Shown here piece after piece: positions 14,969 through 44,054 of a stretch of 64,000 nt of DNA. Origin of the DNA: Lytechinus pictus (lineage: Eukaryota); the NCBI RefSeq assembly GCF_037042905.1, contig NC_087250.1, positions 21,640,001 through 21,704,000 of the forward strand, written 5' to 3'. The notes beneath the pieces were generated by a model that did not search any database, was not told the DNA's origin, and saw only the letters and a list, made by a program, of their open reading frames with translations. Within the stretch, counting starts at the first letter, position 1. The number at the start of each line of letters is the position of its first letter. The translations under genes were made by a program, and so were the position numbers.

Positions 14969-16477
14969 TTAAATTTGGGATAACTAATATTGCTTGAGCT
15001 TGAGGAAAATGCTTGTGATCGATTCTCTAATTTTGTTCGTCTACTTTTCTATTGGATACCAAGAGTTAGGCGCTTTGAGCAGTCGTAGATTGTTTTTACG
15101 CGTAATTCTAAAGCAAATTATTATTTTTGAGCTAGTTTACCATGAATGAAATCATAGGAAAACTTCATAATATCTATATTACTCAATGCTAGGTCAAGTC
15201 TTGTGTTATACTCCTAATAATTATGTATGAGTGAGAATAGAAGTATCATATAATACAGTCTAAGGATAGAATTTTTGAGAAATTTAAGATGAACTACATT
15301 CTTGATTATAATTATATTTTACTTTCGTGTGATGTAGCACTTACTCTCAAGTGAGATCTGTGCTGGCCAAAAAGTACTTATTAATGTACAAAATCCTATG
15401 GCGACAACAGCCGTCAACGTAGAAGGTGCTAACACATACATACATACATCAATCTATCAATTAAAAATAGTGATTTTGTTTAATTTACATGAAGATGAAA
15501 TACTTTTTAAAAACAATTTCCAATATATGTTTTACCATCTTTTTTTAATAGAAATATATATGTTTTTAATTGATAAACAGATTTTCATCGAAACGCCGTC
15601 TTGTTTTTTTTTCTAAATTCATGTGTAAAATCTTATAATCGATTCTCCCATTCTACTCAATTGTTCCGTTGCCAGACGGTGGGATCGGAGGGGGGGGGGT
15701 GAAACCATTCGCTGGGTTACCGGGGGGGTGGAACTGATTAGCTCAAGTGTTTCATCCATCGCAATTTACAATATTTCATTTATTTTTTCGGCTAAAGGGC
15801 CCTTTTTTCTTTCAATAATTTTATTCATCAAAATATCAACATATATACAATATTTACATACTCTCAGTACATGTAATACATATACCATGCATACAGTATA
15901 ATACTACACTCCAAACGCTTATATATAACAGAAAACTTCTACTAAGAACATCAAGAAAAGTAAAAAGTCAAGTGTAAAACCACCACGGTAATAAGTTGGC
16001 ACCTTATATTCTATTTCCATGATATTGTTGTGATATATCTATAGTTTGTGAACATGAACATCGGAACAAATAGAGGAATGAAGTAGTGTAGGAAAGGGAT
16101 GTCTAATCATTTCTATTGCAGCAAACCAGCGCAATCTTCCAAAGAATTGAGAAAGACTGAGAATTTCAAGTAGGTCATCTGGCATTCACTCTAAACACAG
16201 GATGGTGCGTTTCAAAATTTTGTTAGACTGATACAATCGCTGTATGAAGTGTAACTTCTACACCGTAGAGGACATCAATATATCAATACACATCAAAGTG
16301 TTCAATAAAAATAGTTTAATTGAAAATTTCTCATTGAGCATAAAGATAAAGTAATTTTTCGAAAAAAAATAAATAGAATTAAAAATCTATAAAATTAAGT
16401 AAAGAAATATTAAATGATGCAATGGGTATTATGTGATCCCTTGTTAAATTTGGAACAACTAAATTGCTTTCAAGGAT

Positions 16478-19779: not shown

Positions 19780-20640
19780 TAGCGCCCTCTCGTGATCGTA
19801 ATGGTACATGTGTACGTGTCACGCCTTCTTTCTGGGTTGTGAACTTGTGTTGTTGAGGAAGCCGGGTTCATTAGAAACACCAACACTGCTCAGATTTAAG
19901 GAGTTCTTTGGCAACATTTGTTTGATTGATCTACAGGGTACGTATGATATGATATGCCGTAATCTGTGATGTATTGTGATTTATCAAAAGATTTGCATTT
20001 GAGAATTTAGAGGATCGGTAGCAGCCATAGCGCGCAGCGGTGATACTTTAGCGTAATTTGTAAGCCGAAACTGCTGGGGTGGGTGGGCTACCACAGGCAC
20101 AGCCAGCGTGATGCGTTTTGACGGTGTGTTTCTGATGATCGTCTATTGTACATATGCACTGTACATGCGAATAATGACCGAGTCAGTGCACTCGTCATCC
20201 CCGACCATTTGCCATACAGCAAAAGGTAGGGGATGGGACTAGAGGTATGTGAGGCGTACTCAGTCATAGACAAAATTTGTTATAAAAATGTAAAAGTAAG
20301 AGAGTTTGACTTAATACCAGTCTCCCCCGAACCAAACGTTGATCTTCCTTCCGTTGCTGTAATTTATCTTGGAATCAACGATATATTGTCATTTGAAGAT
20401 TCTTCGAGAAATCGTCGGAATGTGTGATGAAATTTGTCATGATCCTCAGCAGCGCATAGACTTCTACGTAGAGGATGTAACGCGCCCTCTTGTGCTCAAT
20501 TAAAGAAAGCTAACGGAAGCGACCACACCACTGACCTCTACAGAGCTGTATAAAAATGCTTCTCACCACAGTGCACAGATACCTGTTTCCGGTGATGCTT
20601 CTATTTCGGATCTCCGAGATCCAGCGATAGTAGTCTCTTT
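19780..20640 (+). promoter_or_regulatory. Candidate UAP1 promoter and non-coding first exon (about 19810-19937)
   Basis: Locally CpG-richer and non-repetitive. CTCF-like motifs at 19780-19797 and 20481-20497, ETS-like TTTCCGG at about 20586, donor AGG|GTACGT at 19938. The ATG exon begins at a splice acceptor, so an upstream UTR exon is required. The link to UAP1 is inference. Confidence 0.45.
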
Positions 20641-22262
20641 CTCCCCTGACACAATATTTTTTTAAATTATTTTATACACAAAAATAATTGTTGTAGCACC
20701 ATCAGCTTAGTCTATTCTATAATGAACTGTATCTTGTCGTATGGTGAAAGGAAATATGATGCCTTTTTTGGGGGGAGGGGGGGTTATTGCTTCTTCTCTC
20801 GATCCCCCGATCCCTCTCTTGATGAGTACTATCATTGTAAGGGTTAATCATTAATATTATTTTGGTTTTCTATTATTTTTCATATTGTTGTTGAATATTC
20901 ATTTTCATCATCATATCACTTTTGTAAGCCCACATTTTGTACCATCCTGGAATTAATATGGGTAAAGGGTGAAATGTGAAAAGAATGAAAGGGGCAAGGA
21001 ACTCAAAACAAAGTGATAAAACAGAACATAATTACGTTCCATTTTTTTAAATGAGTTTCTTTTATTTATCCAGGATGGGGAGCACATCAGGCTCGTGCCC
21101 ACCCTCTCGAAAGCCATAGAACAGATTTATTTTGCATCCATTTTGTTTGATAAATTTGATAAATTGTTAATTTCATTTGATTGTAATCCTTTATGTTGTT
21201 TGGATTTGAAATCAATTAAATTAACTTGAAACTTAATTTCCTGCCCTCCCCCTTGAAAATTTTGATCTGCCCCTAAATAGGCCTTTGTGGTAAGAGATTT
21301 TTTATTTCATTTATTTTTTAATGAAAATCCTTTAGGTTTGGATTTTAAATCAATGAAAACAAGCTCGGGAAATTAAATGATTTTGACTTTGTATCAATAC
21401 GAAACAAAATTGAAAATTTGTCTTGATTGAGGCTAACAAGACTTCCTTACCAGAATGCATTACGAGCAAAGTTTCATCGAAACCTCAACGGTCAGTGGTG
21501 CAAACGGGTTGATGAGCCTCTATGGTTTCGTGAGATCTTTTTTCTTTTTCGATTTGTCACTGTTGAACACCATAGACGTAATGGAGGCAGTTGGATGAGG
21601 TTCACATAGAGAAATCGGTGATTTTTTATATTATATTTATTAATTTAAAGTCATTTCCGTCAAAATAACAGTTTTTAACAATGGAGCAGTTCAAGTATGA
21701 ACTGATTCGCGGGGGGAAAATGAGCAATGTATATTTTGACAATTGAGAGGTATACAGCCAAAAAAGAGGTTATATTATATAACCTCGTTCGTAGGATGAG
21801 TGAGTCAGTGAGTGATGAAAGCGCCTAACCGAGTGCAGTGCGAGCGTTTAGATCAATAAATTGTACATCGAGGCCGATTTTAGTTAAATTTGCCAGTATT
21901 GACATTTATGTGAGGGTGTGTTTGTGTTCTATTTTCAGCATTGAAAATGAGAGAATGTTAAACTAAAAGTAAAGCGGCCAAATCGTGGTTTCGGGAACCA
22001 GCTCGTCAAATTGCATGTACGCGCACTTGTGTACAAAGTGAATGGAGGTGGAAATAGGGAACCGTGCGTGTGAATGAATAAAGCGCTGCTGTATGAAGTG
22101 AACGGTGGTTTCTAATATCACGATATATAATGCCAGTAATAAAGCAGAAGATTGTGAAAATAAATTATAGCATTAAAATATATTGATGAAGCCAGGTTTG
22201 AAAAAGTTCGAGAAAAATCCAGATGAAGATTAAGATAGTCAGAAAATCTATTGGAATTTTAA

Positions 22263-22849
22263 AGGTCAAGTCCACCCCAGGAAAATGCTGACTTGAATAA
22301 ATAAAGAAAAATCAAACTAGCATAGTGCTGAAAATTTCATCAAAATAGGATGTAAAATAAGAAAGTTATGACATTTTAAAGTTTCGCTTATTTTTCACAA
22401 AACAGTGATATGCACATCTAGGTGAGTCAGTCGATGATGTCCATCACTATTTCTTTTGTTTTTTATTGTTTGAATTATACAATATTTCATTTTTTTGAGA
22501 TTTGACAATAAGGACCAACTTGACTGAAACATATAGTATTAAACAATGCTAATGCCACATGTTCAAGGAGGAATTAATCGTTGTATCACTTGCCAATGAG
22601 GAGAAAATTAGAATATTTCATATTTGACATAATGAAATACAAAAGAAAGAGTGAGTGGATGACGTCATAGTCTCCTCATTTGCATACCAGCCAGGATGTG
22701 CATATAACTGTTTTGTGAAATTCAGCGAAACTTTAAAATGTCATAACTTCCTTATTTCACATCCGATTTTGCTGAAATTTTCAGTGTTATGTTTGTTGGA
22801 TTTTTCTCTTTTTATTCAAATCAACTTTTTATTGGGGTGGACTTGTCCT
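22263..22849. mobile_element. Kolobok-like MITE family B (second copy split into about 26614-26904 and 34425-34722)
   Basis: TTAA|AGGTCAAGTCCACCCC...GGGGTGGACTTGTCCT|TTAA. Confidence 0.85.
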
Positions 22850-23830: not shown

Positions 23831-26800
23831 TGTTTTTTTGAAAATGATATTTCAAAGGTAATCCTGCTTACCTTGGTTGTTGAGAGACATCACCGATGTC
23901 CGACGACTGAGTTCATGTTGCTCACAATCTCTGGTATAAAACTATAATCTCACTCTGGTTTCTGGTATGGTCTCTGGTATAAAATGGTCTCTACCGTGGC
24001 CCGGCGTGGCAGCTCTTTAATACGTGGCTGCCGGGCCTACGGTTGACTGCGCAGCAAGGGCTGTTGATCGGGGGAAACCAGGGGAATCAGGGGCAGGGTC
24101 TCCTGCCTTACATTGTAATCTCACCGATTACTATATTTCATTATTTTTAAAAATTGAATTCATGATATAGATCTACATGTGAAGCTGCTTGCATGTGATG
24201 TGACAAATGAAAAATTTGAATTCTAATAACGTATTAAAACTTTGAATGGGTTTTCCTCAAACCTTCACCAATATTTCAAATTATTTGTTTACAATAAAGG
24301 TTTGTCAGGGTTAAATTTCCCTTTTTATTGAGTTTTGTTGAATCATGATCACCCCACCCCCAAGCCTAATGTTAGTCTTGAGATGCATGGATGGATAGAG
24401 TAAAAAAATCAGTTTGATCTTTAGTGTAACTAATTCTAACTAAATAATGGCAAGTAAAGTAGAACCTATTTAAAAAAGAAAAATGAAATAAAAACAGGGT
24501 CACCAAAATTTTGCAAGAAATTCAGAAAATTGTGGTTTTAAATGTTGATTTTTCATAGCTCTCTTCATGTTCTTGCAAGAGACAAGGATTTTATCATGAA
24601 AATAACAAATAAAAAAAGCAGGCGAGGGAAATAATCAACCTCATTGAATTCCTGTGTAAATCCACTCAGGAAACATGTCAACATAACCAGATTTAAAAAC
24701 TTTGATTGAATTGAAATATTGTTTTGTGAAAAGAAACACTTGTTTAGAATAAAAAAATTGCAGAAAAGTTCAGATTATACCTTGGGCATTTTACTAAAGG
24801 GGCATGTTGCATAAAAGAAACACTCTGAAAATATTTTGTAATTAATGTCATTGGCATAATTTTGTTTGCCAGAATACATGGCAAAGCTTTAATTGTTTAG
24901 GCATAACGTCTAGTCAAAGACAAGAAAGGTCCTACAATGTACAATGTGCATGTATCATGAAAATGGAATCCTGAGTATTCAAATTTGATATTTTGGCTAC
25001 CTCTTCATCTCTTTACATTTCGTTATTCTTCCCTCTTTCTCTCTCCTCTCTTCCCTCCGCTCCTATTTTCTTTACTTCATCTATGTTTAATTCTTGGTTT
25101 CTAGTTGATTTTATTAAAGAATATATTTTCTGTTCGATGTTATGCTCTACCATTCCAGTTAGCGTTCTTTAGACAGTAGATTGCACTTGACCACTCGGAG
25201 CCGGAACAATGAAATGGTCAAGTTACTTCATTGTTCTGGCCCTGAGTGTTTGGTCGGGTGGGTTGCTGTCATAGATCGCTGACTTTCAATGTAACTTCCA
25301 ATTATACTTTGTTTAAAATCTTGACAATTTTCTCATCATGAACAAATCTATTTCTGCTGTTTTACAGTAGGTTATTTTCTCAATTTTTAAATGAAATCAA
25401 TCATACAGTGTATCCCAATATTTTTCTTCGGTCATTCTACATACATGTATTTTGCCTTTATTTACCCCCCTTATATTTCTGTAATGTGTATGAAGCTCAA
25501 GTGCATAATTTAACTCTTATGTTCTTTATATTTGATTATCTTTGTTAATCCGTAGGTATATAATTTCATGTATTTTCCCTTTTTTTCTGTTAATTTTGTA
25601 TGTAGTTAATAGTCTTTGGACTGTTTTTACATTGTATTCATATATTAAACCGAATTGAATCGAAAAAACAATTGAAATTGACAAGAAAAATTAAATGTAC
25701 AGTACATGTAGATCAGAGGGTGTTTTACGATTGAGTTTGTGTGGCTTCAAATGCTTATTATGCTGATGGGCACATGATGTAGCGTGCAAATTATAGTTTT
25801 TAAATACCAGTTTGATAACATCCTCAAAATGAGTTCGAAAAGAATCCGATGAAGTTACCACCCAAGTATTATGTATTTAAATAAAAAATATGTGCCAAAT
25901 GACTCTTGAAAAAAATGTGTAATTGTTGAGAAATGAGTAAAATAAGCACGGAATTCCGTCAAATGTTGGGTATATTTCCCAAGCAATATTAATACACTGT
26001 CCCACGACCCACATGTACACGATGTACTTATGCTTATTACGTGTAAGTCAAAATGGTCATCAGAATGATCAGTTTCGGGGCAAAAATTATTTTCATGATT
26101 ACACAAAGATAAGTTTACACTGTATCAGATCTAAATCTATGGTGACAATGATTAAAGATGTCCATTTTATACCGCAAAAAACTGGGAATTTAATGTCAAT
26201 AAGTGTGACTTTAACCGCCGTTTCACATGGTAAAAAAATGTAGTTTGAATGATGATTCCAGTGAAAAATAACGCTAATGAAAATATTAAGCACGTGTGAA
26301 ACCAAACTAGAACGTGATTAGTATCACGAACGCTAATCACAATTAGATTACAATCAAAATCATTATATTACAATGATGATTCTAGATTCATGTGTGAAAA
26401 GGCCCTTAGTCACACTTAAATCTTTGTGAAACACCCCCAGGATATTAAACAAAATTGAGTGCAGAGGAGCATTTCATTCACATTTTCCATCTGACGAGCT
26501 CTCTTGGTTTTGATTGGCTGTGAAGCATGGTTTCTATGGCAACTGTCGGATAAATTGAACTCGTTGGAAAAAAAATGTCCAACAAGTCCTTTTATGATAA
26601 GGCAGTGGTAATAACAAGTCCACCCCAACAAAAAGTTGATTTGAATAAAAGAGAAAAATCCAACAATTATAACACTCAACATTTCTTCAAAATTGAATGT
26701 AAAATTTAAGAAAGTTATGACATTTTAAAGTTTTGTGTACATTTAATTTTACATATATATGCACATCCTGGATAGTATGCAAATGAGAAGACTGATCTGA

Positions 26801-26918
26801 TGTCATCCACTCACTATTTCTTTTGTTCATGTACATGTATTTTCTCCTCATTGTCAAAGTGAAACAACGTTTAATTCCTCCCTGAACATGTACAGTATTG
26901 GTTTCCCAGGTCAAAAAA

Positions 26919-27475
26919 CCAGTTAAGGACCAGTTCATCCAACTGGTACTGGTACCAGTTGATTCCAGTTAGCGAACTGGATTCAATATGGAAATTGGAA
27001 TACTGGAATCAACTGGATTCCAGTTGATTCCAATACTGGAATCAACTGGAATCCAGTTGACAAATTGTAACTGGTACCAGTTGGAAATACCAGTTGGCAA
27101 CTGGTCCTAACTGGTACCAGTTAGCAACTGGTACCAGTTGACAACTGGTCCTAACTGGTACCAGTTAGGACCAGTTGGAAACATGAGTTGTCAACTGGTG
27201 CCAGTTAAAACCAGTTGGAAACAAAAATTGTCAACTGGTGCCAGTTAGGACCAGTTGGAAACATGAGGTGTCAACTGGTGCCAGTTAAAACCAGTTGGAA
27301 ACACCAATTGTCAACTGGTGCCAGTTAGGACCAGTTGGAAACATGAGTTGTCAACTGGTGCCAGTTAAAACCAGTTGGAAACACCAGTTGTCAACTGGTG
27401 CCAGTTAGAACAAGTTGGAAGCACCAGTTAGGACCAGTTGGAAACATAAATTGTCAAGTGGTACCAGTTAGAAAC
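26919..27475. repeat. Left subterminal array, 40-bp unit (80-bp dimer)
   Basis: tcaactggtgccagtt recurs at 27191, 27231, 27271, 27311, 27351 and 27391, alternating ttaaaa/ttagga. Confidence 0.92.
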
Positions 27476-28139
27476 ACCCTGCAATGTATAGCATAAACAA
27501 AAATGAATCATGTGGATATGTACATTCCCGATCTTTTACTCTTCTCATATAATTACTCCTTCGTTTTCCTTGCGCACACACACATTAGAATATTGGTACC
27601 AACACCCCCCCCCCCCCTCTCAGGCGGTTATTTCAATTATAAATTATCTTCAATTATCTTTACATTGAATGTCCACTCCTGTTATAACAATGTGCATGGA
27701 CAAGTGAAATAATTATCCTTGCACATAGGACTGATGAAATGAATCAAGGTAAATTTGTAGCATTGTATTGAAACCTTGTTAATTTCCACATGCACAATAT
27801 AACAGGATTGGACTGTAAACTTGCTCTGGTAAATCAATCCCTCAGTCTCTTGAAATCTGTACCAAAAAACATCAGAGAATGACAAAAGTCACAAAAAACA
27901 TCTATATGGTATTTAAACTAGGAATTTAATGAAAGAAAATTATGTTACAAACTGTAACATGCTGTGTATAATTCTTGTATTATGTGTCAACAAAGATCAT
28001 TAACTTACACAGTAAATATGTAGTCAATCCAATTTTTACATGCTAGCTTGGAGACAAAATTTGAATATAATGCATCTAAGCATTTACCTTCAATAAATAA
28101 TATGTACTATTTTTAAAGGAATGATAAAGGAGTCTTTTT

Positions 28140-30822
28140 TTAATGATTATTTATTGAGATCTTGGGGCCCTCACTGGCTCTGAAGAGGAAACGTGAAACA
28201 GGTACCTTCCTTTCCTGTAGTGGCACTTTGCTGGTAGATGCGATGTATCTGAAGATTAGAAAAAAAAAACCAATGGAATGAAAAATAATAAGTACAGTGA
28301 ATACCGTAATACAAAATTTCAGTGGTGTAAAATTATATCTGCACATAAAGAAAATACATGGGATAGTGAAACTTCTCTAAGTTCCATATTTCAATGATTC
28401 AATTATAAATGATAGACAGCACATCATCATTTTTATTACAACATGTATAGTAAGTTCACATGGTCTTGGGAATACTTCTGAAATTGACATCGCAGAGATG
28501 AAATTGCCTCAACCTTATACCTATACATTTATTTTAATAATAAAGACTTAGACTATGTATGTTTGCATATATGTATCTAGGAGTCTATGTTGCACATTAT
28601 CTGCTAACATCTGATGGGTATTTCATGATTGTCAGTGCCGACTATTTCAGTGAAATCATTGCTTTTGATTGGCTGAGAAGCACTGGCCTCTGACTGTTAC
28701 TATGGTAACTGTCGGAAAAAGACAACTTGTTGATGCTGACAACTTTCAAAAAGCAGTTCCCAGAACATGTTTAAAAACGCAAGACAAAGCAAAAAAAAAA
28801 ATGAAATACAAAATTTTATCCGAGGATGGTCATGGCCGAAAATATTTACATCTAAATAATACTTGAGTAAAATTCACAGAGCAAAATGATGAAAATTTCA
28901 TCAAAATAGGATAACAAGAAGTTATTGAATTTTAAAGTTTATCAATATTTTGTGAAAACAGTTGTATGCACTTCGTCATGAATATTCATTAGGTGGGCTG
29001 ATGTCACATCTCCACTTTCCTTTTTTTTATGTTACTAGATGAAATCATAAATGTTTGATTTTTTCATACATGTGTAAATGATGCGTCTCCATTGTAATGA
29101 AATAAGTTGCGTCAATAACTAATGCACCTAATCAGTTGTCAATCCAATTGTCAATAGTTCTTGGTTAAAAATATCTTCATAAACCTAATCTCATATAATA
29201 AAATACAAAAGGGCAATTGGGATATGACATCATCAGCCAACCTAATGAATATTCATAAAGACATGCCTAGAACTATTTCACCGGAATAATGCAAATCTTT
29301 AAAATTCAAAACCTTAATTAATTATCAAATTTTGATCAAGTTTTCAGCATTTTGCTTTGTGAATTTTACTCTATTTATTGAGATATGTTTCCAGCCTGGA
29401 CCATCCCTTTAATTCTACTTCTACGGTACCCCCACACATACTGGTAAGTCAGAGGTAAAAAACAACGAGAACCAATTTAATTTCAAAGATAAAAAAATAC
29501 TCCAGCCTCCAGATTTAAGAAAAAATTCAGGAAATGTTATTTTAGTTCAGACTAATTGTGCACGTTTCATTTCGGAGGTCAATCTGAAATTATACTTCCA
29601 GTTCCAAATTCACGCCATTTGGTTATGCAAAAGCATGAATTAAAATTGATGGGCATGGGCCCATGTCACTGGCTAGCCTAGAGGACTCCATGAAGATAAT
29701 TTTATCATTTTTACATTGTATTTTCATCACGGAGCCTAGACAAGCCTCCTATAAGGTTGCTCGTACAACTGTGTAAACAAAGATAGATTTCCCTCGGAAA
29801 TCCACCTTTCCCATAATGATTTTTGGGCAAACATTAAATTTTTACATTTTGTAAGCCTTGATACTCTAAATGTGTACAAAGGCTTAAAAAAAAAATAATT
29901 GTAAAATGTACAAATTGGAAATTTTCTTACAAAAAGGATCACTTGCTTGCAGATCTTGTCCTCACTGCCTCTGAAGAGTTCACGTGCGACAGGTACATTC
30001 CTTCCCTGTACTGGCACACGTTCTTTGCTGGTAGATGCGATGTATCTGAATAACAATGGAGAGAAAAATAATCAGTACAGTGAACAGTGAATAAAAATAC
30101 GTCTATATTACAGTGAATAGCAATACATGTCTACACCTAAGGCGGGCAAGGGTTACTACAGAGTGTTGTAAAATTCCATTTGAACATTAAGAAAAATACA
30201 TGGGATTGTGAATCAATGATTCAACTATAATGATAAACAGCACATCATCATATTTATTTTAAAAAATGAGTAAGTTCACTTGGTCTTGGGAATACTTCTG
30301 AAATCGATGTCGCAGAGATCAGTCCTTCATGTTTATAATTCCATGGAGCTCAATAAATGGCTCTCCTTATGCCTCCGAATTTGCTTTCCTAGACACACTC
30401 AATTTTATAAAATGCTCAATTGTTGTAGATTGTTATTAAAATTGTAAATGCAACAGCTGTGTAGCTATTAATTAATCTGTGGTGAAACTAGGCTTGGGTC
30501 ATGTACAAAAATATCGCGCTCCTCAAAAAAAAAATTATAAGTAGGGTGTCCGAACTCATATTAGGCCTAAAAAAAGTGCTAGAATTTCATATTTTACATC
30601 TTTAAAACCATTAAATCACCATCTCTTTTCCATAATTCTCATAATAGAAGATACACAAAGACCCCAAAAGAAAACTTGACATCTGAATTACCTAACTTAC
30701 AGCCTCCTCATATGGAGGGCAGCAACGAAGTATTCGGATCTCCACTCCTGAGTCCTGGCGGTTCTGAGCTGGGCCTTCTTCTGGAAACTACCGGTACCCC
30801 AGGTCATGTTCACTGACTTCAT
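28140..30822 (-). CDS. Putative spliced 109-aa ORF of unknown function, complement(join(28140-28248,29947-30045,30701-30822))
   Basis: Acceptors tttcAG (before 30874), attcAG (before 30045) and cttcAG (before 28248). Donors GTAAGT (30700) and non-canonical GCAAGT (29946). The frame stays open across both junctions. No expression evidence. Confidence 0.35.
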
Positions 30823-30874
30823 CTCCTCCTCGAGGCTCAGTATGACTCCAGGTGGTTTTGGGTCTCCCTCTCTC
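30690..30874 (-). mobile_element. 3' terminal fragment of an RTE-clade LINE
   Basis: Frameshifted translation ERGRPKTTW.../EEEMKSVNMTWG..QKKAQ...EWRS..FVAAL resembles the RTE ORF2 C-terminus (RGRPKxTW...W...AQDRxxWRxxVxAL). Confidence 0.7.
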
Positions 30875-31589
30875 CTGAAATACACAGTCAAAAAGTGATA
30901 AACAGCTATTCATGAAAAAATCAGACTCTTAAAATGGTGGAAAAAATAATGAATTTCGATTTTCGGCATTTCAAAATCTCATCAAAATCCTCAAATCGTG
31001 TGTAAAGTGATTGGTGCGCAGACACGAGGCGCTGGCCACTATCATAATGTTAAATCTGAAATTGAAAATCATAACTGGCTGAGTCTCAGATTTTTTCCAA
31101 GACCAAGAAAATCAGTTTCACATTCGATCACATATCTCTCTCATTTACTTATAACAATATATGGAACAATATCAACTGAAAGATTTTGTGAAATAAAAAG
31201 AAATTCATGTTAAATCTTAACACAAATCGTAAGGTCAATATGATGTATGTGCGCAGACTTGAACCGGCATGGCAGCCACACATCCACGCCCGGCTAGTCC
31301 CGGCCGGCAGGCAGCGCTGAGGGGCAGTAACAGGATGTCCTGACGAACAGCTAACGTTACAGCTAGCCCCGCAGCTAGCTGCGAGCCGCGCCATTTAACA
31401 AACTACGAAAAGAAAATCATAGAAAATTGTTAACTTACCTGTAGAGCCTACTGCGAATGTCTTAGCTTTCAAGTCATTGTCCAAATCTGGTCCGTGTGAT
31501 TTCAGTGGTTGAATTATTATTAAAACGGCCTTCTTTACCCTTCTTTATCGCACTAGCACTCGATAAAAGTGCGGTGCAAATTAACGGCG

Positions 31590-31750
31590 CGGCGAAGATG
31601 GCTCTTTCAAATTCAAATTAGATTGGCGGTTTGCGTTTTGGCGGCGCTGGTTAATTTGCATAATTATACGGACGATAGCGATCAGTGGCACTCAGTGCGC
31701 ATGCGCAGGCCCGCCCGCGCCCGGTGATTGAAGGAAGATCTGCTGAGTCA
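31590..31750 (-). promoter_or_regulatory. Pol II promoter-like motif cluster inside the transposon
   Basis: Perfect NRF1-type TGCGCATGCGCA 31696-31707, GC box 31710-31716, octamer ATTTGCAT 31654-31661, E2F-like TTTGGCGG, CCAAT on the minus strand (about 31622-31626), TTTGAA twice, and YY1-like GCCATCTT. CpG-rich over 31250-31730. Minus-strand donor CAG|GTAAGT at 31438. Confidence 0.65.
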
Positions 31751-33064
31751 GGAATAACGAAGGGGGGGGGGGTCTAAAGCAAGAAAGAAGTTTTAAAATA
31801 GAAATACGAACTTCTTAACATACAAATTTCTTCTTGTTTGGTTTTGGTTGGCAACCAGTCAAGAAATGACGATTTTTGCCTCTGCTTTTGGAGCTTTTTT
31901 TTTTCTTTGAAAGTTTAAGAATGAATTAGCTTAATATTTGTTCTTTATTTCTATTTTATTTATTTTCTTTTTATTTGAAAGATAAAGATAGCCTTGCTTA
32001 ACATGGCAAGGTTGTAAACTAGCAATAAATATGCGCGATATAAATAGAAAAAAAATAGCTATTCTATTCACCTTCAAAAATATTTTTAAAATATCAGTGA
32101 GTTAAAAAAAGAAAAATACATTAATTTTTATGTGATTTGTAAAAATAGTGTAAAATAGTCCTCTTTAACTTAAATTAAAAAAAAGGGATTAAATAGGAAG
32201 AATTTTTTTTTCTCGCAACAAATATCTAGGATAACAATTTTTTTAATGTAAACTAGAAAATTTCACTGAGAATAACATGTTTCGATTTAAGTTATATGGT
32301 AATATCGAACCACATACTTTAATGAAATTTTTCAAGGTGGAAATATTAAAATTAACATAAAGAATAATTAAGTTAGTTATTATGTAGATATTTTTTTCCT
32401 CTTATCCTCAATCGAGCTGTGTATAGGATGGATAAATGCATGGCATTTATTGTGGTAAAAGGCTGAATTACATGAATTTGTACAGAGCAAAATTTCAGTA
32501 AACAAATAAGCAAAAAAAAAATAACAAAGTAAACTAATGTATAATATTGGAAAGGGGATACAAAAAGAAAAGTATACAGGGAGGGGGGGGGGAGTAATGT
32601 CAAAAGCAGGAACGGGCAAAGGTTGGGAGTAGGCTAAATGTATATACCTTTAACATAATGAACATTTTCACATAAATATATATTTAACCAATGTTGAATG
32701 AATAACAATACATGTAGATTAAAGAAAAGATTGTATGAAATAATACTTGCTTTTTTTTAAGAAAAGTAACGCTTTGTTGATGGTAACAATAATAATAGTT
32801 ATAGGAAACACATTCATGAATGATAATCATAAAGAATTATCTCAAAAGGAATTAAAAACAAAGATAAGAGGACTTTGAAGTAATATGATCTGTACAAAAA
32901 ATATAAATATTAATGTAAAGTGGGTTACAGCTATATTGAGCCAGTGACTTGTCGGATAAGAAATTTGAATGATTACTGCAGATATCAACAATTACAAAAA
33001 TATTTCAAAAGTCAGTTTAAGAGAAGCGACAAATAAAACAACAAAGGTATGAAAACATAGTTCT

Positions 33065-33095
<31 letters not shown>

Positions 33096-33180
33096 AACTC
33101 TGTTGGAAATAAGTACAATGCATTACCACTATGCCTCTAATATACATATATATATATGTATATATTATATATGTATACAC

Positions 33181-34410
33181 GGGTTCTTACTAGAATCAGC
33201 TGGTAAGTCCTATTGGTTCTAACTGGTATCATTTGGTTTGATATTCCAGTATGGTTAATGGGTTTCAAGTGGGTTATGGGTGGCCTATGGGTTCCAACTG
33301 GTATAATCTGTTCCAGTTTGGTTTATGGGTTTTAACTGAAATCAGCTGGTAGATATATACTGGTAATGCCTATTGGTTCTAACTGGTATCAATTGGTTTG
33401 ATATTCCAGTATGGTAAATGGGTTTCAAGTGGGTTATGGGAGGTCTATGGGTTCCAACTGGTAAAATATGTCCCAGTTTAATTGATTTATGGGTTTTAAC
33501 TGGAATCAACTGGTAGTATACCAGTAATGTATGTTGATTTTAACTGGTATCAATTGGTTTGATATTCCAGTATGGTTAATGGGTTTCAAGTGGGTTATGG
33601 GAGGTCTATGGGTTCCAACTGGTAAAATATGTTCCAGTTTGGTTTATGGGTTTTAACTGGAATCAACTGGTAGTATACCAGTAATGTATGCTGGTTTAAC
33701 TGGTATCAATGGGTTTGAAATTCCAGTATGGTTAATGGGTTTCAAGTGGGTTATGGGAGGTCTATGGGTTCCAACTGGTATAATCTGCTCCAGTATGGTT
33801 TATGGCTTTTAACTGGAATCAGCTGGTAGATATGCCAGTAATGCCTATATTGGTTCTAACTGGTATCCATTGGTTTGATATTCCAGTATGGTTAATGGGT
33901 TTCAAGTGGGGTTATGGGAGGTCTATGGGTTCCAACTGGAACACTCTGATCCAGTTTGGTTTATGGGTTTTAACTGGAATCAACTGGTAGGTATACCAGT
34001 AATGCATGTTGGTTCTAACTGGTATCAATTGGTTTAATGATATACCAGTATGGTTTATGGGTTTAAGGTGGCATTAACTGGTATATACACCCATTGGGTT
34101 TCTATGGGTTCCAACTGGCATCAAATGGTCCAGTTTGGCTAATGGGTTTTAAACTGGAATCTATTGGTAGATAAACCAGAAAGGCCTATTGGTTTTAACT
34201 GGTATTAACTGGTGTACTAATTTATACCAGTATAGTTAATTGGTTTCAACTGGAATAAACTTGTATGTTTTCAGCATGTCCAGTTGAGACAATGGGTTTC
34301 AACTGGAATATACTGGCATGGTGGGAGTTTACCAGTTGTGCCAATTGGTTTCAACTGGTACCAGTTGACTCCAGTTGAAACCAGTTAAAATTTCAACTGG
34401 TTTCAACTGG
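33181..34410. repeat. Right subterminal array, ~160-bp unit (~6-7 copies), AACTGG-rich
   Basis: gatattccagtatgg or close variants recur near 33240, 33400, 33561, 33718, 33878 and 34040. Confidence 0.92.
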
Positions 34411-36249
34411 TTTTTTTACCTGGGTTAATGCTGTATGGTTCAGTCAAGTTGGCCTAATCATCAAATCTGTAAAAAGAGGAATAGTGTATAATTCAAACAA
34501 TAAAAAACAAAAGAATTGGTGATTGAGGGATGTCATCGACAGTCTCATTTGCTTATTTTGTATATTTGCTGAGTTGTGCATATCACTTTTTTTTGTGAAA
34601 AATAAGCGAAGCTTTAGAATATTACAACTTCGATGAAATTTTCAGCATTATACTACATGTAGTTTGGTTTTTCTCTAGATAAAGTTTTTGAAATCAACAT
34701 TTTTCTTGGGTGGACTTGACCTTTGAATACAGAACACTCGCTCTACACTCAGTAGGCCTACAGTATGTTGCATTGACAAATTTTATAATGACTGTGAAAT
34801 ACTGTACAGTGTACACAGGTTCGTCAAACATACATGTGAAGCTAATATTGGATAATTGATCAGCCACCAATGTAAACAGGATGCTTGGCACAGGTGTCTA
34901 AAAATTACACTAGGGCCGTCTGCACCAGCCTGAGTTTTCAAATTAGTGTGGTATTTCTGATCTGGCAGATCATCCCGATCCAAACAATATCAAGATTATT
35001 TGCAATGGAGACGCAATTATCGCGCTAGTTCACTGGATTAATCTCGAGATTGCAATCCCAAGTCAACTTAGGATTGCAAAATAGCACGCTATTTTACAAA
35101 AAAATCATGCTAATTCGCACTTCACAGGTGCAGACGCACTCAGGATTATTTGTGCGATGCGTCTGCCGTCACACCTTAATGCATCGATTCCTCGCTGGAG
35201 CAGGAATCACTCTTCTTGCGATGGTGGAGACAGGGTTTCTTGAATCTCGAGATTAATCACGAAGAGGCCCAATCAGGCTAAAATCTCGAGATTGAGCAAA
35301 CTCGGGCTGGTGCCGCACCGCCTACTGACTCAATGTAGGGTTGGTGGGGGTTGGATATCCACTCACTTTCTTTTATCTGATTTCAAAAATGAAACAAAAT
35401 AAATGAAATAAAAATAGCACATATTTTTATTGTTTGATGTTTCCATTTGTATCTCATTATCAAATTATAAAAGTTGAAATACGTGTCCCGCCTGCAAAAT
35501 TCTGTATATATCGCCGTCCTGGAATCATGTGTCTCAGAGACAGGCAATGTATTGGTCAACGAATAAATCACGCATACATTGTCGAGGACATGGGGCAAAT
35601 TTCCCTTCAGAAAAGCCAAAGAGAGCCTTGGAAATTCATATAATCCAATGTAAATTGCCTACATTATATGGCTGGTTAGCTAAAAAGGTATCAAAGTCTC
35701 TGAAAATTTTGTGTTAATTTTTCGTGTAATTGGCATGTTACTGCTTTTAATTAATGCCTGTTTTTCAAGCCACTTGCTTGCTGATCTAATGATTATTTCA
35801 TGTATTCATAACATTTTTTTGTGAGGGAGTTATTCAATCAGAAAGTGGGAGGCATGGTCCCGAATCTATATCATTAGGGAGCAATATATATACAATACAT
35901 GTTTTTGTAAAATTATTTTCCTGACCAACACACCCCCTTGGCTTTCATTTTTTTTCTTGCCAAAAGCCCATTTCATCTTGGAGTAATATTGCCATTTTTT
36001 TTTTACTAAAACCCTGAAAATACTCAGCACCCCCTCTTTAAAAGACGTTCCCAGGGCCCCGGTGGGAGGTGGCACATTTGCAATGATACATTTCCCATGC
36101 CTCCAAGTAGGAATACACAATAAAGTTACATAGCTACTTACCTTGACCTTAATTTGACTTTGGAAAGGGTCAGGTGATCGATGTCAATTTGTCATGTGAC
36201 AGGGGAGTGTCTGATGATTTATCTTGTCAGCGATAATTGCCACTGACTA

Positions 36250-38323: not shown

Positions 38324-39330
38324 GTAGAGTCCTCAGAAATACCCCCCCCCCCCAAAAGGTAACTTTTTAAAATAATGACCTTAACTTTCACTTCCCATCA
38401 ACAAACATGTCATTCACATGCCAAGGATAATGAGGGGCAAACCTGCCACGTTGCAAATAAAAATTCAGTTTGTTCTTGTACCAGTACATAGCATTTAATA
38501 TACCACTTTCTTGTACCAGTACATAGCATTTAATATTCCACTTTCTTGTACCATTCAATATACCTCTCTCTTGTACCAGTACATAATTTGCAGTAATTAA
38601 TACCATGAGGGTACCAGTTATTATTTGATAGTTGTTTATGAAGACCATGTCTTAAAATATGCAAGATGTGATTGACCCTATCACTTTCAACTATGGAAAG
38701 CCAGTGTAATTCTTTGCGTAATGTTATCCCCTTGTGTTACAAGAAGGATGGAGCTGTATCAAACCAAACAATGATTTTGCTTAAGTTTTATTTTATCATT
38801 TTATGAGCTACATGTATATCAAGACAGTGATGGCTTAACTTTATCGTGCCCTTTGTAAGACAGGTCCCAGTTATTTCATTCCAACAGGGAGCTTTCTAAC
38901 TTGGCTGATTAGAATGAAGCCTTGGACTGCACAATTATGATAATAATAATAATGTCATATTTTACCCATGGTAGGCACTTCAGTTCTGAAAACTGTTCTC
39001 CCAGCAGACACTGCTGTTTACCCCGGCTTTAGCATGGCTACCTTGATCGGGTAATGGAGTATTTGATCAATTTCTTCCTACCCATTCACCTTACCTGGGT
39101 TGAATCATTCTTGTTGAGATCTTTCATATGACCAAATGCTAATCAAAGTTAGTTCCTGGGAGTGGGAATACATGTCAAAATAAACAACTCATGTGACATT
39201 TATCGATTGATCTTTGTATGTTGACTTGTTGTACATGCCAATTTTCACCCTTTCCCCCATGAAGTTTAACAACTTTTGTTTGCTTAATTCATGTTGGTTC
39301 TTTCTTCTCATTCTCTGAACAGTCTAAATC

Positions 39331-39607
39331 ATGGACGTGACGGCTCTACGCAACAAGCTCTCTCAACTCGGCCAAGATCATCTCCTAGAATTCTGGGATG
39401 ACCCCGACCTGACTGATGACCTCCGGAGGTCACTCTATACTGATATCACTGGCACCAACGTCGAGGAGGTTTTGAAGTTCTTTGAGACGTCGACAGCAAA
39501 CATGAATAACAGTGAGAAGGTGGATGAGAGGATGGAGCCGATCCCGTCAGAACTCTTCGGCTCCGTAACAAGGTCTGGAAAGAACCTGGATAGATGGTAC
39601 AAGGATG
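39331..39607 (+). CDS. UAP1: UAP1 coding exon 1 (MDVTALRNKL...DRWYKD/G)
   Basis: Acceptor ttctctgaacAG ends at 39322, ATG at 39331, donor G|GTAAG at 39608 (phase 1). GQDHLLEFW resembles the UAP1 N-terminal motif. Confidence 0.93.
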
Positions 39608-39649
39608 GTAAGAAAAGGTTCTACATTGGAATGTAATAATGCAAATTGT

Positions 39650-39855
39650 AATGATGATGGTGTGGTGATTATTGTTATGCTATAAATTACTGATGATGAT
39701 GATGATGACGATGATAATGATTACGGGTTTGATTAGGATCATGATTATGATACTACTACTACTAGTACTGGTGATGTTGATGATGATGAGCATAATTATG
39801 ATGAGCATGATGATGAGCATGATGATGATGAGCATGATGATGATGAGCATGATCA
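39650..39855. repeat. (GAT)n-rich microsatellite
   Basis: Degenerate GAT repeat in the intron after UAP1 coding exon 1. Confidence 0.9.
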
Positions 39856-40634
39856 CTAAATCACTAAATCCTTTCTGTAGAGTGCTCAAGGCGCATATAA
39901 CTGTTCTATTTCAATTTTCATAACTTCTTTATACTACATATATATATGTAGTATTAAGAAGTTATGAAAATTGAAATAGAACAGTTATTACGCACATTCT
40001 AATCAATTCGTAATCACAGTTTTTTTGTGTGAAAAATCCTCTGGTGTACTGTTGAAATAGGTTTAAAAAATACATAGGCCCGTATTCTTAACGCTGGTTT
40101 GAATTAAACTCTGATTTAAAGTTGTAGTTTAACTATGGAGAGCCATTTTGGGCACAAATCCCTATAAACAATACACATCAAATTTATTAGCTCATTTGAC
40201 ACTCATACTGTCCATAAATGATTGCTGAAGTATTTTTCTTCATTATGAAAGCAAAAGGAAACAAAATAGTTAACATATTAAGAGATATACAATATGAAAA
40301 TAATTTTTTGGCTCCCCATAATTCTAGTGCAGAATTAAACCTGACTTCAGAATAAGGGCCATAGTCTACAACTCTCACAAACATTGTAAAGGAACCACTC
40401 GATTCTTGTAGCCAATAGGTTACAGGGAATAATTGTGCTTCACAAATTTGAATAGCTTTTTTTGGTCAAAAGAGAAAAGCTCTCAACTATAAAAGTAGTG
40501 TACAGTCCTATGTGAACATTTGCTATACAAAAGACTGTATGTGTAGCATTCTTTAAAAATTGTGGAGCAAATTGTGATGCGACACCAGGAAATTTATTCC
40601 CTGGGTTAATAACTCCCGTTTCTCTATCTCCCAG

Positions 40635-40839
40635 GTTTAAAACAGATTTCCCAAGGCAAGGTCGGTGTTCTCCTTTTAGCCGGGGGTCAAGGTACGCGCC
40701 TAGGGGTCAAGTATCCCAAGGGAATGTTCAATGTGGGCCTGCCTTCAGAGAAGACCCTCTATCAGCTACAGGCTGAACGGATCCTAAAAGCGCAGGAACT
40801 TGCCCTGGAGTTAACAGGAGAGAAGGGGGTTATACCATG
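40635..40839 (+). CDS. UAP1: UAP1 coding exon 2 ([30 protein letters not shown]...GVIPW)
   Basis: ctcccAG acceptor and TG|GTAAG donor. Contains the [17 protein letters not shown] nucleotide-binding signature of UDP-sugar pyrophosphorylases. Confidence 0.97.
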
Positions 40840-40856
40840 GTAAGACAGGAGCCCTG

Positions 40857-41119
40857 GGCCCCATCTTACAAAGAGTTGCAAGATCCGATCGATCGCAACT
40901 ATGGACGGCCAGCAATATCAACATCTATTTGTTTGTTCAAAATATTTTCTAGCTATGATGTATATTCATGCATTCATCGTTGTCGTGAAAATTCATTGTG
41001 CTTCTCTTTGTTTGCAAAGGACATTGTGCACATTTCCTGTAGAGAAAATTATGACACTGATGGATTTCCATAGAGTTACGATTGATTGGATCAATAGTAA
41101 CTCTTTGTAAGACGGGGCC
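40857..41119. mobile_element. Harbinger-like ~265-bp MITE (other copies at about 41870-42112, 43065-43337 and 51175-51442)
   Basis: TIR GGCCCCGTCTTACAAAGAGTTAC with CWG 3-bp flanks. Confidence 0.8.
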
Positions 41120-42427
41120 CTGGAGTAAGGAATTGGTCTATGTAATGATACTAAGGTGTGTTTGCTCATTGAAATAAGGTGGGTGTTTCACAGAGCTGGT
41201 CGTAAGTTACGAGCAACTTTACGAACGACTGGTGATCCTTTCTTGTGGAAAATGATACACACCACATTTTCTTTGATGTTTGTTCAGCGCCTTAGAAAGG
41301 ATCACCAGTACTTTGTAAAGTCTCTCGTAAATTACAGTATAACATTAACAGCTTTATAAAACACAGGTCTTACAAAGTATTCTGATAATTAAACTGAGGT
41401 TTAATCCCTGTGTGTGTTAATAAAAGGTATTACTCTATGTATTATCTATACATATATATATTATATGAGTACATGTAAAATTTATAAAACAAAAGATTGT
41501 TGCTTTACATGTACCAATATATTAGGCCATTAACAAACGTGCAGTACATGTATGTACTCTTGTGATTTGAGAAAATACATTTATGCATGCAGTAAAACCA
41601 AACAAGGTCCATGCTCCTTGCATCTCTCCTTCAGGAATCAGAAAGCATCTTTTCATGATCAATCCACACATTATTCTTTTTGACAGTACAATGGGGAAAG
41701 CGGGAAGCCGCTATGGAAAAGACACACAGTGCCTTTATACTCTATAGCAGGATTCGTGACTGAAATGCATGACACAGAATTTTCAGAAGTTGCATTGAAA
41801 TGAATCAAGGTGCAATAAACACTGATCTCGTGAGAAAGCCTGCGAACCCAAGGTTAATTGTCATTACAGGGCTATGTCTTTACAAAGAGTTGTGATTGAT
41901 CTGATCAACCACAACTATGGAAAGCTGGCAATGCCATCATTTAAAATGCATGCTTGTTCAAAATTAAATATCTTCTAGATATGATGTATATTCATACATT
42001 CATAGTTTTCTTGAAAATTCGCTGTGCTTCTCGTAGTTTTCAAAGGACATTAATTGATTTCCACATACTTGAGGTTAATCAGATCAATCGTAGATCTTTG
42101 CAAGATGGGACCCAGATCTAGATCTGGTACACTCACATGAATTCAACTTTGTGAAATCACACAAAAAATCTAAGCTGAAAAATTATCAAACTGTATATCA
42201 CCAACACAGGTTAGCACAAATGGGACTTGCTTAGAAAAAGATCCAATATTTTGGCTGGAATACCGTAACTTTATATTGCTAATTCCTTAGCAATTACACA
42301 ATTTCTTGCAGAATACTTTGGCACATATATCAGACAGACACTTGGCTGGTACTTGTGATTCTGTACAAACTCATTCTGAAATTGTTACCACAACTGGCAT
42401 TTATCTTTATTTGTTTAATTTGTGTAG

Positions 42428-42603
42428 GTACATCATGACGAGTGAGCACACGAAGGGGCCAACAAGGGAGTTCTTCAAGCAGCACGACCACTTTGGTATC
42501 GGGGAAGACGATCTGGTTCTCTTTGAGCAGGAGATGCTTCCGTGTGTCTCCTTTGAGGGAAAGATCATCCTCGATCAGAAACACAAGATATCCAGAGCAC
42601 CAG
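42428..42603 (+). CDS. UAP1: UAP1 coding exon 3 (YIMTSEHT...FEQEMLPC...ISRAP)
   Basis: tgtgtAG acceptor and G|GTAAAT donor. WYIMTS and FEQxxLP motifs. Phases match neighbouring exons. Confidence 0.96.
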
Positions 42604-43462
42604 GTAAATCAAGGCAGAGACCAAATGAAATGGCCTATCAAGACCATCGTTGCATGCGCATTTTGCTCATTGGACTGTCTAGGAACCAATCAGAATTGTT
42701 CTTTCAAATGATTGATCAGTCACTAACCTTTGTGTTACGGGGCACAAATAAAGTAGCCTTTAATCTAGGTGGGGGCTGCAGCTATATTTTAATTGTTCTG
42801 TTAAACGTAAGCGATGTGGCGAGACTAACAGTGCAAAGTAACCACCACCTTTACTCTCTCATTGTGCTGTTAGTTTTTATTTATTGACTATGACACGGTT
42901 CAGAGTTTTCATTTTTTTTTAATGCCACCAGAAATTTGGTCTTTTTTTCGAAGCAATTATAATACACTGCTCCACATGTGCTCATCGGTGTTGGTGATCA
43001 TCAGTGGGGTCATTTTTGTTAGAGCGATCTCATGATTTCAGATAGTTTGATGTAAATGCACCTGGGCCCCGTCTTACAAAGAGTTACGATTGATCCGATC
43101 AATCATAACTCTATGGAAGTCCATCAGCGTCATAATTTTTTCTCCAGGATATTTCACAATGTCCTTTGTATAAACAAAGAGAAGAACAGTGAATTTTCAA
43201 GAAAACAATGAATGCCTGAAATATGCATCATAATTAGAAAATATTTTGAACAAAAATGCATAATAGATGTTGACGTTGCTGGCCGTCCATAGTTGCGATT
43301 GATCAGAACAATCGTAACTCTTTGTAAGACGGGGGCCCAGATCTAGTGCTACCATGTTTTAAAACTTTCTCATGAAATCACTGTTTACTGCAGCTATTTT
43401 CCTATCACTTTAACAAGTATGCTCTTTTTAATTATTATTATTATTGCTGTTATTATTACATT

Positions 43463-43559
43463 GGAAGGGAGGTCTTTACCGTGCTTTTAAAAGGGAACTC
43501 TAAGATCCTGGATGATATAGAGAGACGAGGCATCACGTACGCTCATATCTACTGCATTG
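43463..43559 (+). pseudogene. Decayed partial duplicate of UAP1 exon 4
   Basis: ggaggtctttaccgtgc...taagatcctggatgatatagagagacgaggcatcacgtacgctcatatctactgcattg aligns to the first ~95 nt of exon 4 with an indel. No AG acceptor. Confidence 0.88.
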
Positions 43560-43605
43560 TTACCATTGTTATTGTTGTTGTTACTCTTATTTTTATTGTT
43601 ATAAG

Positions 43606-43778
43606 ACGGGAATGGAGGTCTTTACCGTGCCTTGGGTAACTGTAAGATCCTGGATGACATGGAGAGACGAGGTGTCACCTACGTTCATGTCTACTGCGTT
43701 GATAACATCCTTGTCAAAATGGCCGATCCTACCTTCATCGGATTCTGTATTGACAAAGGGGCCAACTGTGGAGCCAAG
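43606..43778 (+). CDS. UAP1: UAP1 coding exon 4 ([10 protein letters not shown]...[21 protein letters not shown]...CGAK)
   Basis: taAG acceptor and AAG|GTAAG donor. PDGNGG and YCVDN motifs. Confidence 0.97.
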
Positions 43779-43829
43779 GTAAGAAATTATAATTTGTTTC
43801 ATTTATGTTTTGTTTCCGTTTTGCAGGAA

Positions 43830-44054
43830 GCAGGCATGGTGGTTCAGTGGTAGAGCTTCCTCCTCATGAACGTGGGTTCGTTCCCCGGCTGACTTGTTCT
43901 ATAGATTTTTGAAAATGGGATCTTCTGCCTTCCTGCTAGGGGCTCAGCATTTAAATTGGAGAAGGGTAATAATAACATATTATGCAGGGTCCGCTGGTAG
44001 AGCAGTTTCCTAAATGAAGTGGCTATCCTCAGCCAATAAAAATTTATTATTATT
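43830..44054 (+). mobile_element. tRNA-derived SINE with (ATT)n tail
   Basis: TGGTTCAGTGGTAGAGC A-box and GGTTCGTTCCCC B-box. A related tail lies in reverse orientation at about 38940-39040. Confidence 0.65.

Follow-up and report, generated by a model that had tools for sequence, protein, structure and literature searches.

A predicted spliced transcription unit with a LINE-derived exon lies inside a CMC-like DNA transposon of Lytechinus pictus

We analyzed a window of 64,000 nucleotides from Lytechinus pictus (contig NC_087250.1, positions 21,640,001 to 21,704,000), in which a multi-exon transcript on the minus strand had been predicted. The exon layout of that original prediction could be found in the sequence, including the borders of exons 1 to 4, an acceptor at 27856, and an ATG at 30822. 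Exon 1 (31439..31600, minus strand, 5' end approximate) is non-coding, contains a single upstream ORF of two codons, and ends in a perfect donor (CAG/GTAAGT) after 31439; we infer its use as an exon, because the database proteins begin in exon 2. Exon 2 (30701..30874, minus strand, 174 nt), an exonised LINE 3' tail, has a CAG acceptor and a GCT/GTAAGT donor and carries the ATG. Exon 3, as given in the database models (29931..30045, minus strand, 115 nt), ends at a GT donor after 29931, and an alternative GC site after 29947 would give an exon of 99 nt. Exon 4 (28088..28248, minus strand), a duplicate of exon 3, has its acceptor at 28248 and an optional donor after 28088, and a possible exon 5 (27600..27856, minus strand) is marked by the acceptor at 27856 only, with no database support seen. 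When the 111 YAG sites between 27500 and 31800 were ranked by pyrimidine count, a measure with many ties, the four acceptors came 3rd, 4th, 11th, and 16th.

The join of exons 2, 3, and 4 through the GT donor is identical at 104 of 104 residues to XP_063957255.1 (LOC135154559; P0003 in our searches), an uncharacterized L. pictus protein at NCBI. Three donors of exon 3 were tried, matching the consensus at 5/9, 5/9, and 7/9 positions, and the GT after 29931 alone reproduced this protein. The 109-aa ORF proposed originally does follow from the GC-donor join, which yields 109 codons, but we found no database record of that form, and all three database models bypass the GC donor at 29947 for the GT donor at 29931. 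Similarly, the proposal that both internal exons are multiples of three holds for exon 2 and fails for the 115-nt exon 3 of the models. With this length, exon 4 is read in a different frame, and P0003 has only its first 74 residues in common with the 109-aa peptide. In the database frame, the stop codon ends at 28171 and an AATAAA starts 16 nt further, at 28155.

Near-identical products are annotated at two further L. pictus loci, LOC135156335 and LOC129274355, both uncharacterized, and the database models at the three loci agree on the exon 2-3-4 chain. P0003 was found at one locus and a second form, P0005, under two accessions on two contigs; the two are distinguished solely by in-frame indels of 1 and 2 residues, and no residue is substituted. 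The database peptides are 104–107 aa long and basic (pI ~10.3–10.5, 17 K+R versus 7 D+E). A protein search with exon-3 residues, restricted to proteins of 61–195 aa, returned a single candidate cluster, and the protein searches as a whole gave 1/1, 2/8, and 1/3 candidates, the third being a query with the tail of P0008 that matched nothing beyond itself. The splicing considered here is that of the database gene models rather than of reads mapped to the locus.

All predicted exons, and thus the whole transcription unit, are enclosed by a 7,520-bp non-autonomous DNA transposon (26905..34424), a container overlooked in the original prediction, although its alternative of a "transposon-borne" transcript proved apt. 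The element has CCCAGG...CCTGGG ends flanked by TT on each side, and 19 of the 20 terminal nucleotides of its terminal inverted repeats (TIRs) are complementary. The element interrupts an older repeat, for its flanks, once rejoined, match an intact twin at 22261-22846 over the junction (E 8e-111). The target duplication is TT, the longest exact duplication being 2 nt, and the flanks fitted the intact paralog best when 2 nt were removed, if narrowly (695.0; 694.5 with 1 nt removed, 693.0 with 3 nt). Both ends carry subterminal arrays of the motif AACTGG/CCAGTT. The left array (26905..27500, 43 copies) combines 40/80-nt tandem units, spanning 27153-27420, with palindromes and inverted repeats, and the right one (33150..34424, 38 copies) consists of 161-nt tandem units spanning 33213-34071. 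Together, the two ends hold 81 of the element's 83 copies; the 5.6-kb interior has the other 2, and the 56 kb outside the element has 30. A foldback MITE of ~590 nt (28824..29414), with relatives at 14390, 2718, and 3288, is inserted in intron 3.

The TIRs, the 2-bp duplication (2–3 bp in this group), and the subterminal arrays in two orientations are those of CMC/EnSpm transposons. The termini, however, are CCCAG rather than the usual 5'-CAC/CA, and we therefore class the element as CMC-like and not as a proven member of CMC/EnSpm. Animal EnSpm families with CCC ends exist, and mobilization in this superfamily depends on a partner with the same ends that provides a DDE transposase (motifs C(2)C and H(3-4)H). 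Among 57 peptides scanned with Pfam (P0001-P0005 and 52 frames of the element, all but one of those in its interior), no transposase was found and no match exceeded the curated cut-off; the strongest was RVT_1 in the unrelated C-terminal part of P0004 (E 1e-4), and the rest had E 0.002 or weaker. For CACTA elements, the termini 5'-CAC/CA are reported "in most cases" (PMC12730594). A piggyBac assignment, for which the available text of bioRxiv 2024.04.01.587621 gives TTAA duplications and CCCTT termini, was rejected: TTAA occurs on the right flank only, a 4-nt duplication matches at 1 of 4 positions, removing 4 nt fits the paralog worse (686), and the termini are CCCAG. The family may already be listed in the repeat libraries supplied with sea-urchin genome papers as supplements.

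The LINE tail that the original prediction placed in the chimera is indeed present. Exon 2 is a decayed, 5'-truncated LINE 3' tail, aligning over ~190 nt to the 3' end of an element bearing reverse transcriptase (L002). Outside the seed motif, this alignment scores 64, a value reached by none of 1000 shuffles, and the RVT_1 fragment upstream in L002 has E 1.8e-5 and 25 bits, under the Pfam curated cut-off of 29.6. A blastn comparison of all of L002 with the window gave no match at E 1e-3. L001 is like L002 across the LINE, and the two were counted as one source. From its tail signature, the LINE may belong to the RTE clade. The insertion (30683..30883, minus strand) is bounded by a 9-nt target duplication with an 8/9 match, equaled at 156 of 20,000 random positions. 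Its upstream copy ends in the CAG acceptor of exon 2, directly after a T run, and the exon 2 donor overlaps the LINE stop codon. The tail carries small insertions, which in net preserve the LINE frame after the ATG; a shift of the LINE frame lies just before the ATG at 30822, by a few codons, and P0004, a related tail copy, changes frame within the same stretch.

The claim of a duplicated exon was also borne out, as part of something larger: exons 3 and 4 belong to a tandem duplication of ~370 nt comprising the end of an intron and the exon (28157..30319, minus strand; copies 29951-30319 and 28157-28499). Between the copies, the exon is no more conserved than the intron (122/146 versus 228/266 identical, Fisher p 0.57), and pN/pS is 1.9–2.1 in all three frames, a small sample of 27–28 codons and 9–10 differences between old duplicates. 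These tests, which are weak, lend no support to the functional microprotein considered originally, and selection is probably not acting on the peptide. In the database form, the twin exons do not share a reading frame, and the frame used in exon 4 has stops in exon 3. Given the 41 LINE-derived codons of exon 2, chance yields a frame of 100 aa or more with P = 0.08, or 0.18 when the duplication and the three donors are allowed for; the length of the ORF is thus not far beyond chance once those codons are given.

No Pfam family was found for the database protein or the element frames (57 peptides), and no credible relative outside L. pictus was found among 1.84 billion representatives, which gave four matches: P0003 and P0008, both from L. 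pictus, and P0006 and P0007, repetitive proteins with 10–11 short matches that we dropped as chance. The Atlas held no match for P0003 and only unnamed clusters for the tail of P0008. Viral contigs gave no pattern matches, and one 10-residue match in a viral contig (L003) was regarded as chance. An AlphaFold model of P0003 from the single sequence had a mean pLDDT of 44 and no residue at or above 70, which is uninformative without an alignment. At the RNA level, none of 48 Rfam matches reached the gathering score, the best being hairpins of the end arrays, and a C/D snoRNA matched the conserved intronic block no better than chance (E 8.7); a reading of the unit as a snoRNA or miRNA host was rejected. 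In a run search by sequence words, no RNA dataset was among the matches listed; eight contig sets of uncertain kind contain 62–69% of the words, and three raw RNA runs have the same species label, but neither is expression evidence.

We interpret the exons as a spliced passenger RNA made from the transposon's own promoter, with a 104-codon frame that probably arose by accident when the LINE tail inserted into the first intron, and we assign this reading a probability of roughly 0.68. The putative promoter (31251..31750, minus strand), proposed from motifs and CpG content, is the strongest CpG-rich 500-nt stretch in the 64 kb (o/e 1.16, GC 0.51). It includes what we take to be a GC box at 31711, an NRF1-type palindrome at 31696, the sole one in the window, and YY1-like motifs at 31595 and 31389. 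In the scenario we propose, a CACTA/EnSpm-type element would have lost its coding genes and retained its ends, along with the CpG promoter, exon 1, and one exon further downstream. This exon would then have been duplicated with ~270 nt of intron, the upstream copy losing its original donor and adopting a cryptic one. A 5'-truncated LINE may have landed at an existing acceptor just past a T run, where the target duplication would have preserved the acceptor, while the LINE stop codon and GTAA-type tail could have supplied a donor, so that a cassette exon containing an ATG would have been ready at once. Finally, a transposase acting in trans would have copied the element, and the unit would thereby have reached three or more loci; the other two annotated loci are presumably whole transposon copies. 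The passenger RNA may be ribosome-loaded.

Several observations nevertheless count against an incidental ORF: indels that are in frame only and frame-preserving insertions in exon 2 are as expected from selection on a peptide, and a stop 16 nt before the AATAAA is an ordinary mRNA layout. They could fit a young, translated basic microprotein of 104–107 aa, born in the transposon and selected, for example because it binds RNA or DNA and regulates the family of its own element. The annotation of the same frame at three loci without substitutions, the strong promoter and exon 1 donor, and the basic composition agree with such a peptide, yet a copy presumably gets annotated only if its frame reaches about 100 aa, so that in-frame differences are pre-selected. 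Together with the pN/pS of about 2, the equally conserved intron, the lack of homologs, Pfam family, and Atlas neighbors, and the 8–18% of null trials that produce a frame of 100 aa or more, this makes the microprotein quite unlikely. Its fullest version, a gene birth in which the LINE tail gave the start codon, compensating insertions held the frame, and the transposon now spreads a selected 104–107-aa basic microprotein, possibly acting on its own family, appears very unlikely.

Other readings concern the unit's surroundings and its activity. The label "antisense" could not be established, as no plus-strand exon is known to overlap; the nearest plus-strand coding exon starts at 39323 and belongs to a gene of the Pfam UDPGP family with its ATG at 39331. 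This ATG exon begins at an acceptor, and the gene therefore needs an upstream first exon; the CpG-rich region inside the element might serve this gene as a promoter if it also fired on the plus strand. Alternatively, the element could act as a gene trap within a minus-strand transcript of the host whose start lies upstream of the element, with a donor at 36143 or 39096, or that continues to an exon near 23873; strong minus-strand AG/GTAAG sites flank the element at all three positions. The same exon chain modeled at three loci fits a self-contained unit instead, as do an exon 1 with its own promoter motifs and perfect donor and the AATAAA in exon 4, and we consider involvement of host transcripts or genes unlikely. 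The unit might also be a silent or near-silent relic of a TnpA-like helper gene or of exons captured from the host, its database models being predictions without real splicing, and the imperfect exon 3 donors are consistent with this. Against it stand the intact promoter motifs, the perfect exon 1 donor, and the strong acceptors; no recognizable sequence of a helper protein (TnpA or TnpD) remains in the retained transcript, and Pfam found no trace of one. Moreover, the models at three loci arose without protein homology as a guide, which usually implies transcript support. We regard a silent relic as quite unlikely, too.

The passenger RNA we favor resembles several known systems. Non-autonomous En/Spm elements (CACTA, CMC), such as maize dSpm and, among animals, CMC elements with duplications of 2 bp (ENS1_Cis), likewise have short TIRs, a short target duplication, no transposase, subterminal arrays that are asymmetric and mix direct with inverted motifs, and, near one end, an internal promoter directed inward, but their ends are CAC (PMC12730594 and the available part of PMC6004678), whereas those of the present element are CCC. 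Subterminal arrays and movement in trans are described for En/Spm in the accessible portion of PMC2613891, and duplications of 2 bp are reported for a CACTA element from a tunicate in that of PMC6004678. The available part of PMC8615465 mentions neither EnSpm nor RTE. Rice Pack-MULEs are also non-autonomous TIR elements with a spliced chimeric unit; ~40% are transcribed and 9% have translation evidence, according to the text available from PMC5861414. No captured host gene was identified in the present element; its only assigned exon stems from a different transposon, and no known source was found for exons 3-5.

Most likely, then, the unit is a by-product of an ordinary kind: a spliced RNA carried by a transposon and filed by automatic annotation as three "uncharacterized proteins", and XP_063957255.1 was named without transposon context or function. 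This is a warning for sea-urchin gene counts. At the same time, a recently moved, multi-copy unit permits a direct test of de novo gene birth, by comparing frames across copies and alleles.

Retroposon exonisation and transposon-derived lncRNAs are well established (Alu, MIR, and LINE exons), and here, too, an internal exon derives from a retroelement fragment. In contrast to the usual case, both borders of exon 2 are insertion ends, the target duplication containing the acceptor and the LINE stop and tail the donor, and the host of the LINE fragment is itself a mobile element. In the literature searched, from which subscription papers were mostly absent, we found nothing on this locus or on truncated LINE tails as pre-formed exons. 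The accessible part of PMC6007223 describes a T run ~10 nt before the target duplication in RTE-related retroposons and a (GTAA)n tail in one RTE, features that would favor exons like exon 2. The case of exon 2 suggests that RTE-type tails, when truncated, can act as pre-formed exons, a T-rich target giving the acceptor and the stop with the tail giving the donor, an idea that can be tested genome-wide.

The minus-strand unit is laid out as originally predicted: exon 1 (about 31600-31439), exon 2 (30874-30701, 174 nt, with an ATG at 30822), exons beginning at 30045 and 28248, and a possible fifth from 27856 are all present, with their donors and acceptors as proposed. When the region's 111 YAG sites are ordered by pyrimidine count, a crude measure, the acceptors come 3rd, 4th, 11th, and 16th, ties included. 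Upstream of the unit lies the most CpG-rich 500-nt stretch of the 64 kb (observed/expected 1.16), in a region holding what we take to be a GC box, an NRF1-type palindrome (the only one in the window), and YY1-like motifs, and the promoter looks strong. Since these signals and the CpG-rich upstream region are in place, the gene-like anatomy is, at the level of sequence, real.

The whole unit is enclosed in a 7,520-bp element (26905-34424) whose ends are complementary at 19 of 20 nt, start with CCCAGG, and are flanked on both sides by TT. Of the motif AACTGG/CCAGTT there are 43 copies below one end and 38 below the other, against 2 in the interior and 30 in the remaining 56 kb. When rejoined, the flanks align across the junction to a repeat of 590 nt that is intact at 22261-22846 (E 8e-111), demonstrating an insertion with these borders and bearing out the earlier suggestion that the unit is transposon-borne. 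The best-fitting target duplication is 2 nt, by a narrow margin; a 4-nt TTAA duplication does not fit. No transposase or other Pfam family scored above cut-off in the element frames scanned. The element shares its short inverted ends, 2-bp duplication, and subterminal arrays with En/Spm-CACTA elements as described in excerpts of two papers (PMC2613891, PMC6004678). Unlike the CAC or CA termini published for CACTA elements in a further excerpt (PMC12730594), ours begins with CCC, which leads us to file it as CMC/EnSpm-like and apparently non-autonomous. The older ~590-nt repeat is split by the element (26605-26904 and 34425-34724), its paralog at 22261-22846 representing an in-window empty site. 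A foldback MITE family of ~590 nt is found at 28824-29414, within intron 3 of the unit, at 14384-14972, and as an adjacent pair at 2718-3295 and 3293-3876.

The proposed origin of exon 2 in a LINE tail, presumably of RTE type, is upheld by an alignment to a metagenome contig, a 9-nt duplication, and a decayed reverse transcriptase in that contig. The 3' end of this contig (L002), recovered by motif scan, aligns along exon 2 and continues through its donor, and a second contig (L001) reads alike. Outside the seed motif, which matches by construction, 110 nt score 64 versus a shuffle maximum of 56 (0/1000); two results count against this origin, as blastn of the whole contig L002 against the window gave no match at E 1e-3 and the reverse transcriptase, ~700 nt upstream of the aligned part, scores below the Pfam cut-off. 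The duplication brackets the LINE fragment with an 8/9 match, equaled by chance at 156 of 20,000 random positions; its upstream copy is preceded by a T run and ends in the exon 2 acceptor, and the exon 2 donor overlaps the LINE stop codon. In an excerpt of PMC6007223, T runs precede the target duplications of RTE-type elements by ~10 nt, and one RTE carries a (GTAA)n tail, so a tail of this kind could act as a ready-made exon. Relative to L002, exon 2 shows gaps of 4, 8, 12, and 6 nt, and the LINE frame shifts just upstream of the ATG, so that an internal methionine opens the ORF. The same tail occurs in two other L. pictus models, of which XP_054757228.1 lacks two of the insertions and XP_054755266.1 changes frame in the same stretch; small indels are thus common in this tail family, and some of them break the frame. 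Both models read the tail as coding, the former with the tail closing a MINDY-2-like model and the latter with it joined to a reverse transcriptase fragment, as would be expected if predictors, or the spliceosome, easily accept this tail as an exon. Directly after the downstream copy of the duplication, an ATG at 30682 (minus strand) opens a short frame (~23 codons, by eye); because it abuts the duplication, the pre-LINE acceptor would have had an ATG immediately after it.

Exons 3 and 4 indeed lie in a tandem duplication, which includes ~270 nt of intron. The duplicates are identical at 122/146 positions from the acceptor onward versus 228/266 in the intron (p 0.57). Over 27-28 codons, pN/pS is 1.9-2.1 in every frame of the transcript strand; the changes to judge by are few, but they give no hint of purifying selection between the duplicates. 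A weak alignment extends to exon 4's optional donor, and its counterpart behind exon 3 lacks the GT, which suggests an ancestral exon of 161 nt; at that length, exon 4 has stops in all three frames. A ~110-nt block of the duplicated intron (30210-30320 and 28390-28500) is near 90% identical, with a plus-strand GTAAGT in both copies; as a snoRNA, it gave only a chance-level C/D match (E 8.7).

Searching with exon-3 and exon-2 residues found XP_063957255.1 ("uncharacterized protein LOC135154559", Lytechinus pictus, 104 aa), whose cluster has one further member, a 107-aa protein that has two accessions, each on its own contig (LOC135156335, LOC129274355). Three donors were tried for exon 3, and an exact copy of the 104-aa protein came only from the GT site after 29931. 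With this site, exon 3 is 115 nt long and exon 4 changes frame; the database form gives the twin exons different frames, unlike a duplicated protein module. The original prediction had used a GC donor after 29947, and while that join, with its 99-nt exon 3 and 109 codons, exists in the sequence, no database model employs it. The 109-aa peptide and the 104-aa protein agree over the first 74 residues only, and both database proteins carry the extension diagnostic of the GT donor; the exon-3 residue search, over 61-195 aa and with one candidate, had no 109-aa form on record. By itself the GC donor would not be implausible: 7/9 of its positions agree with the consensus, versus 5/9 for the GT site, and GC donors, though weaker, are otherwise usually closer to consensus (PMC3167603, in excerpt). 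Splicing and donor choice are predictions resting on NCBI gene models.

The unit is thus a gene-like one, annotated at three loci, that includes an exonised LINE tail and lies within a non-autonomous CMC/EnSpm-like transposon; most likely (probability about 0.68) it yields a passenger RNA whose ORF is incidental. A frame of at least 100 aa arises in 8% of shuffles given exon 2's 41 inherited codons, and in 18% once the duplication and the choice of three donors are taken into account (1.4% for fully random 570-nt RNA). These frequencies argue against a selected microprotein, which we consider quite unlikely, even though the annotated copies show no substitutions between them and only indels of one and two residues, AATAAA follows the stop of the database frame by 16 nt, and the promoter is strong-looking. 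Annotation was probably limited to copies above ~100 aa, and the protein has no relatives outside L. pictus among 1.84 billion representatives, no Pfam family, and no Atlas neighbour. Were exon 4 spliced to exon 5, the stop would precede the last junction by 83 nt, which would make the RNA a target of decay. That the unit is a silent relic seems just as improbable as the microprotein.

It is also unlikely that the exons act as a host gene trap or that the promoter is shared. On the plus strand, a multi-exon UDPGP-family gene (39323-48465), presumably UAP1-like, is coding from 39331, and an acceptor lies directly before the exon concerned. Outside the element, the minus strand has strong donors at 23873, 36143, and 39096, which hint at another transcript of that strand. 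Given this setting, the unit can be called antisense only tentatively. Together with a possible small exon at ~20585-20645, these donors could be part of a further minus-strand gene; the exon at 23873 ends in a short ATG-started frame. A 769-nt direct repeat (1-769 and 6862-7630, 99.9% identity) runs off the window start; it may reflect duplication in the very recent past, or be a long terminal repeat or an artefact of assembly. Within the UDPGP-family gene, ~43470-43550 and 44647-44760 look, by eye, like decayed duplicates of neighbouring coding-exon starts.
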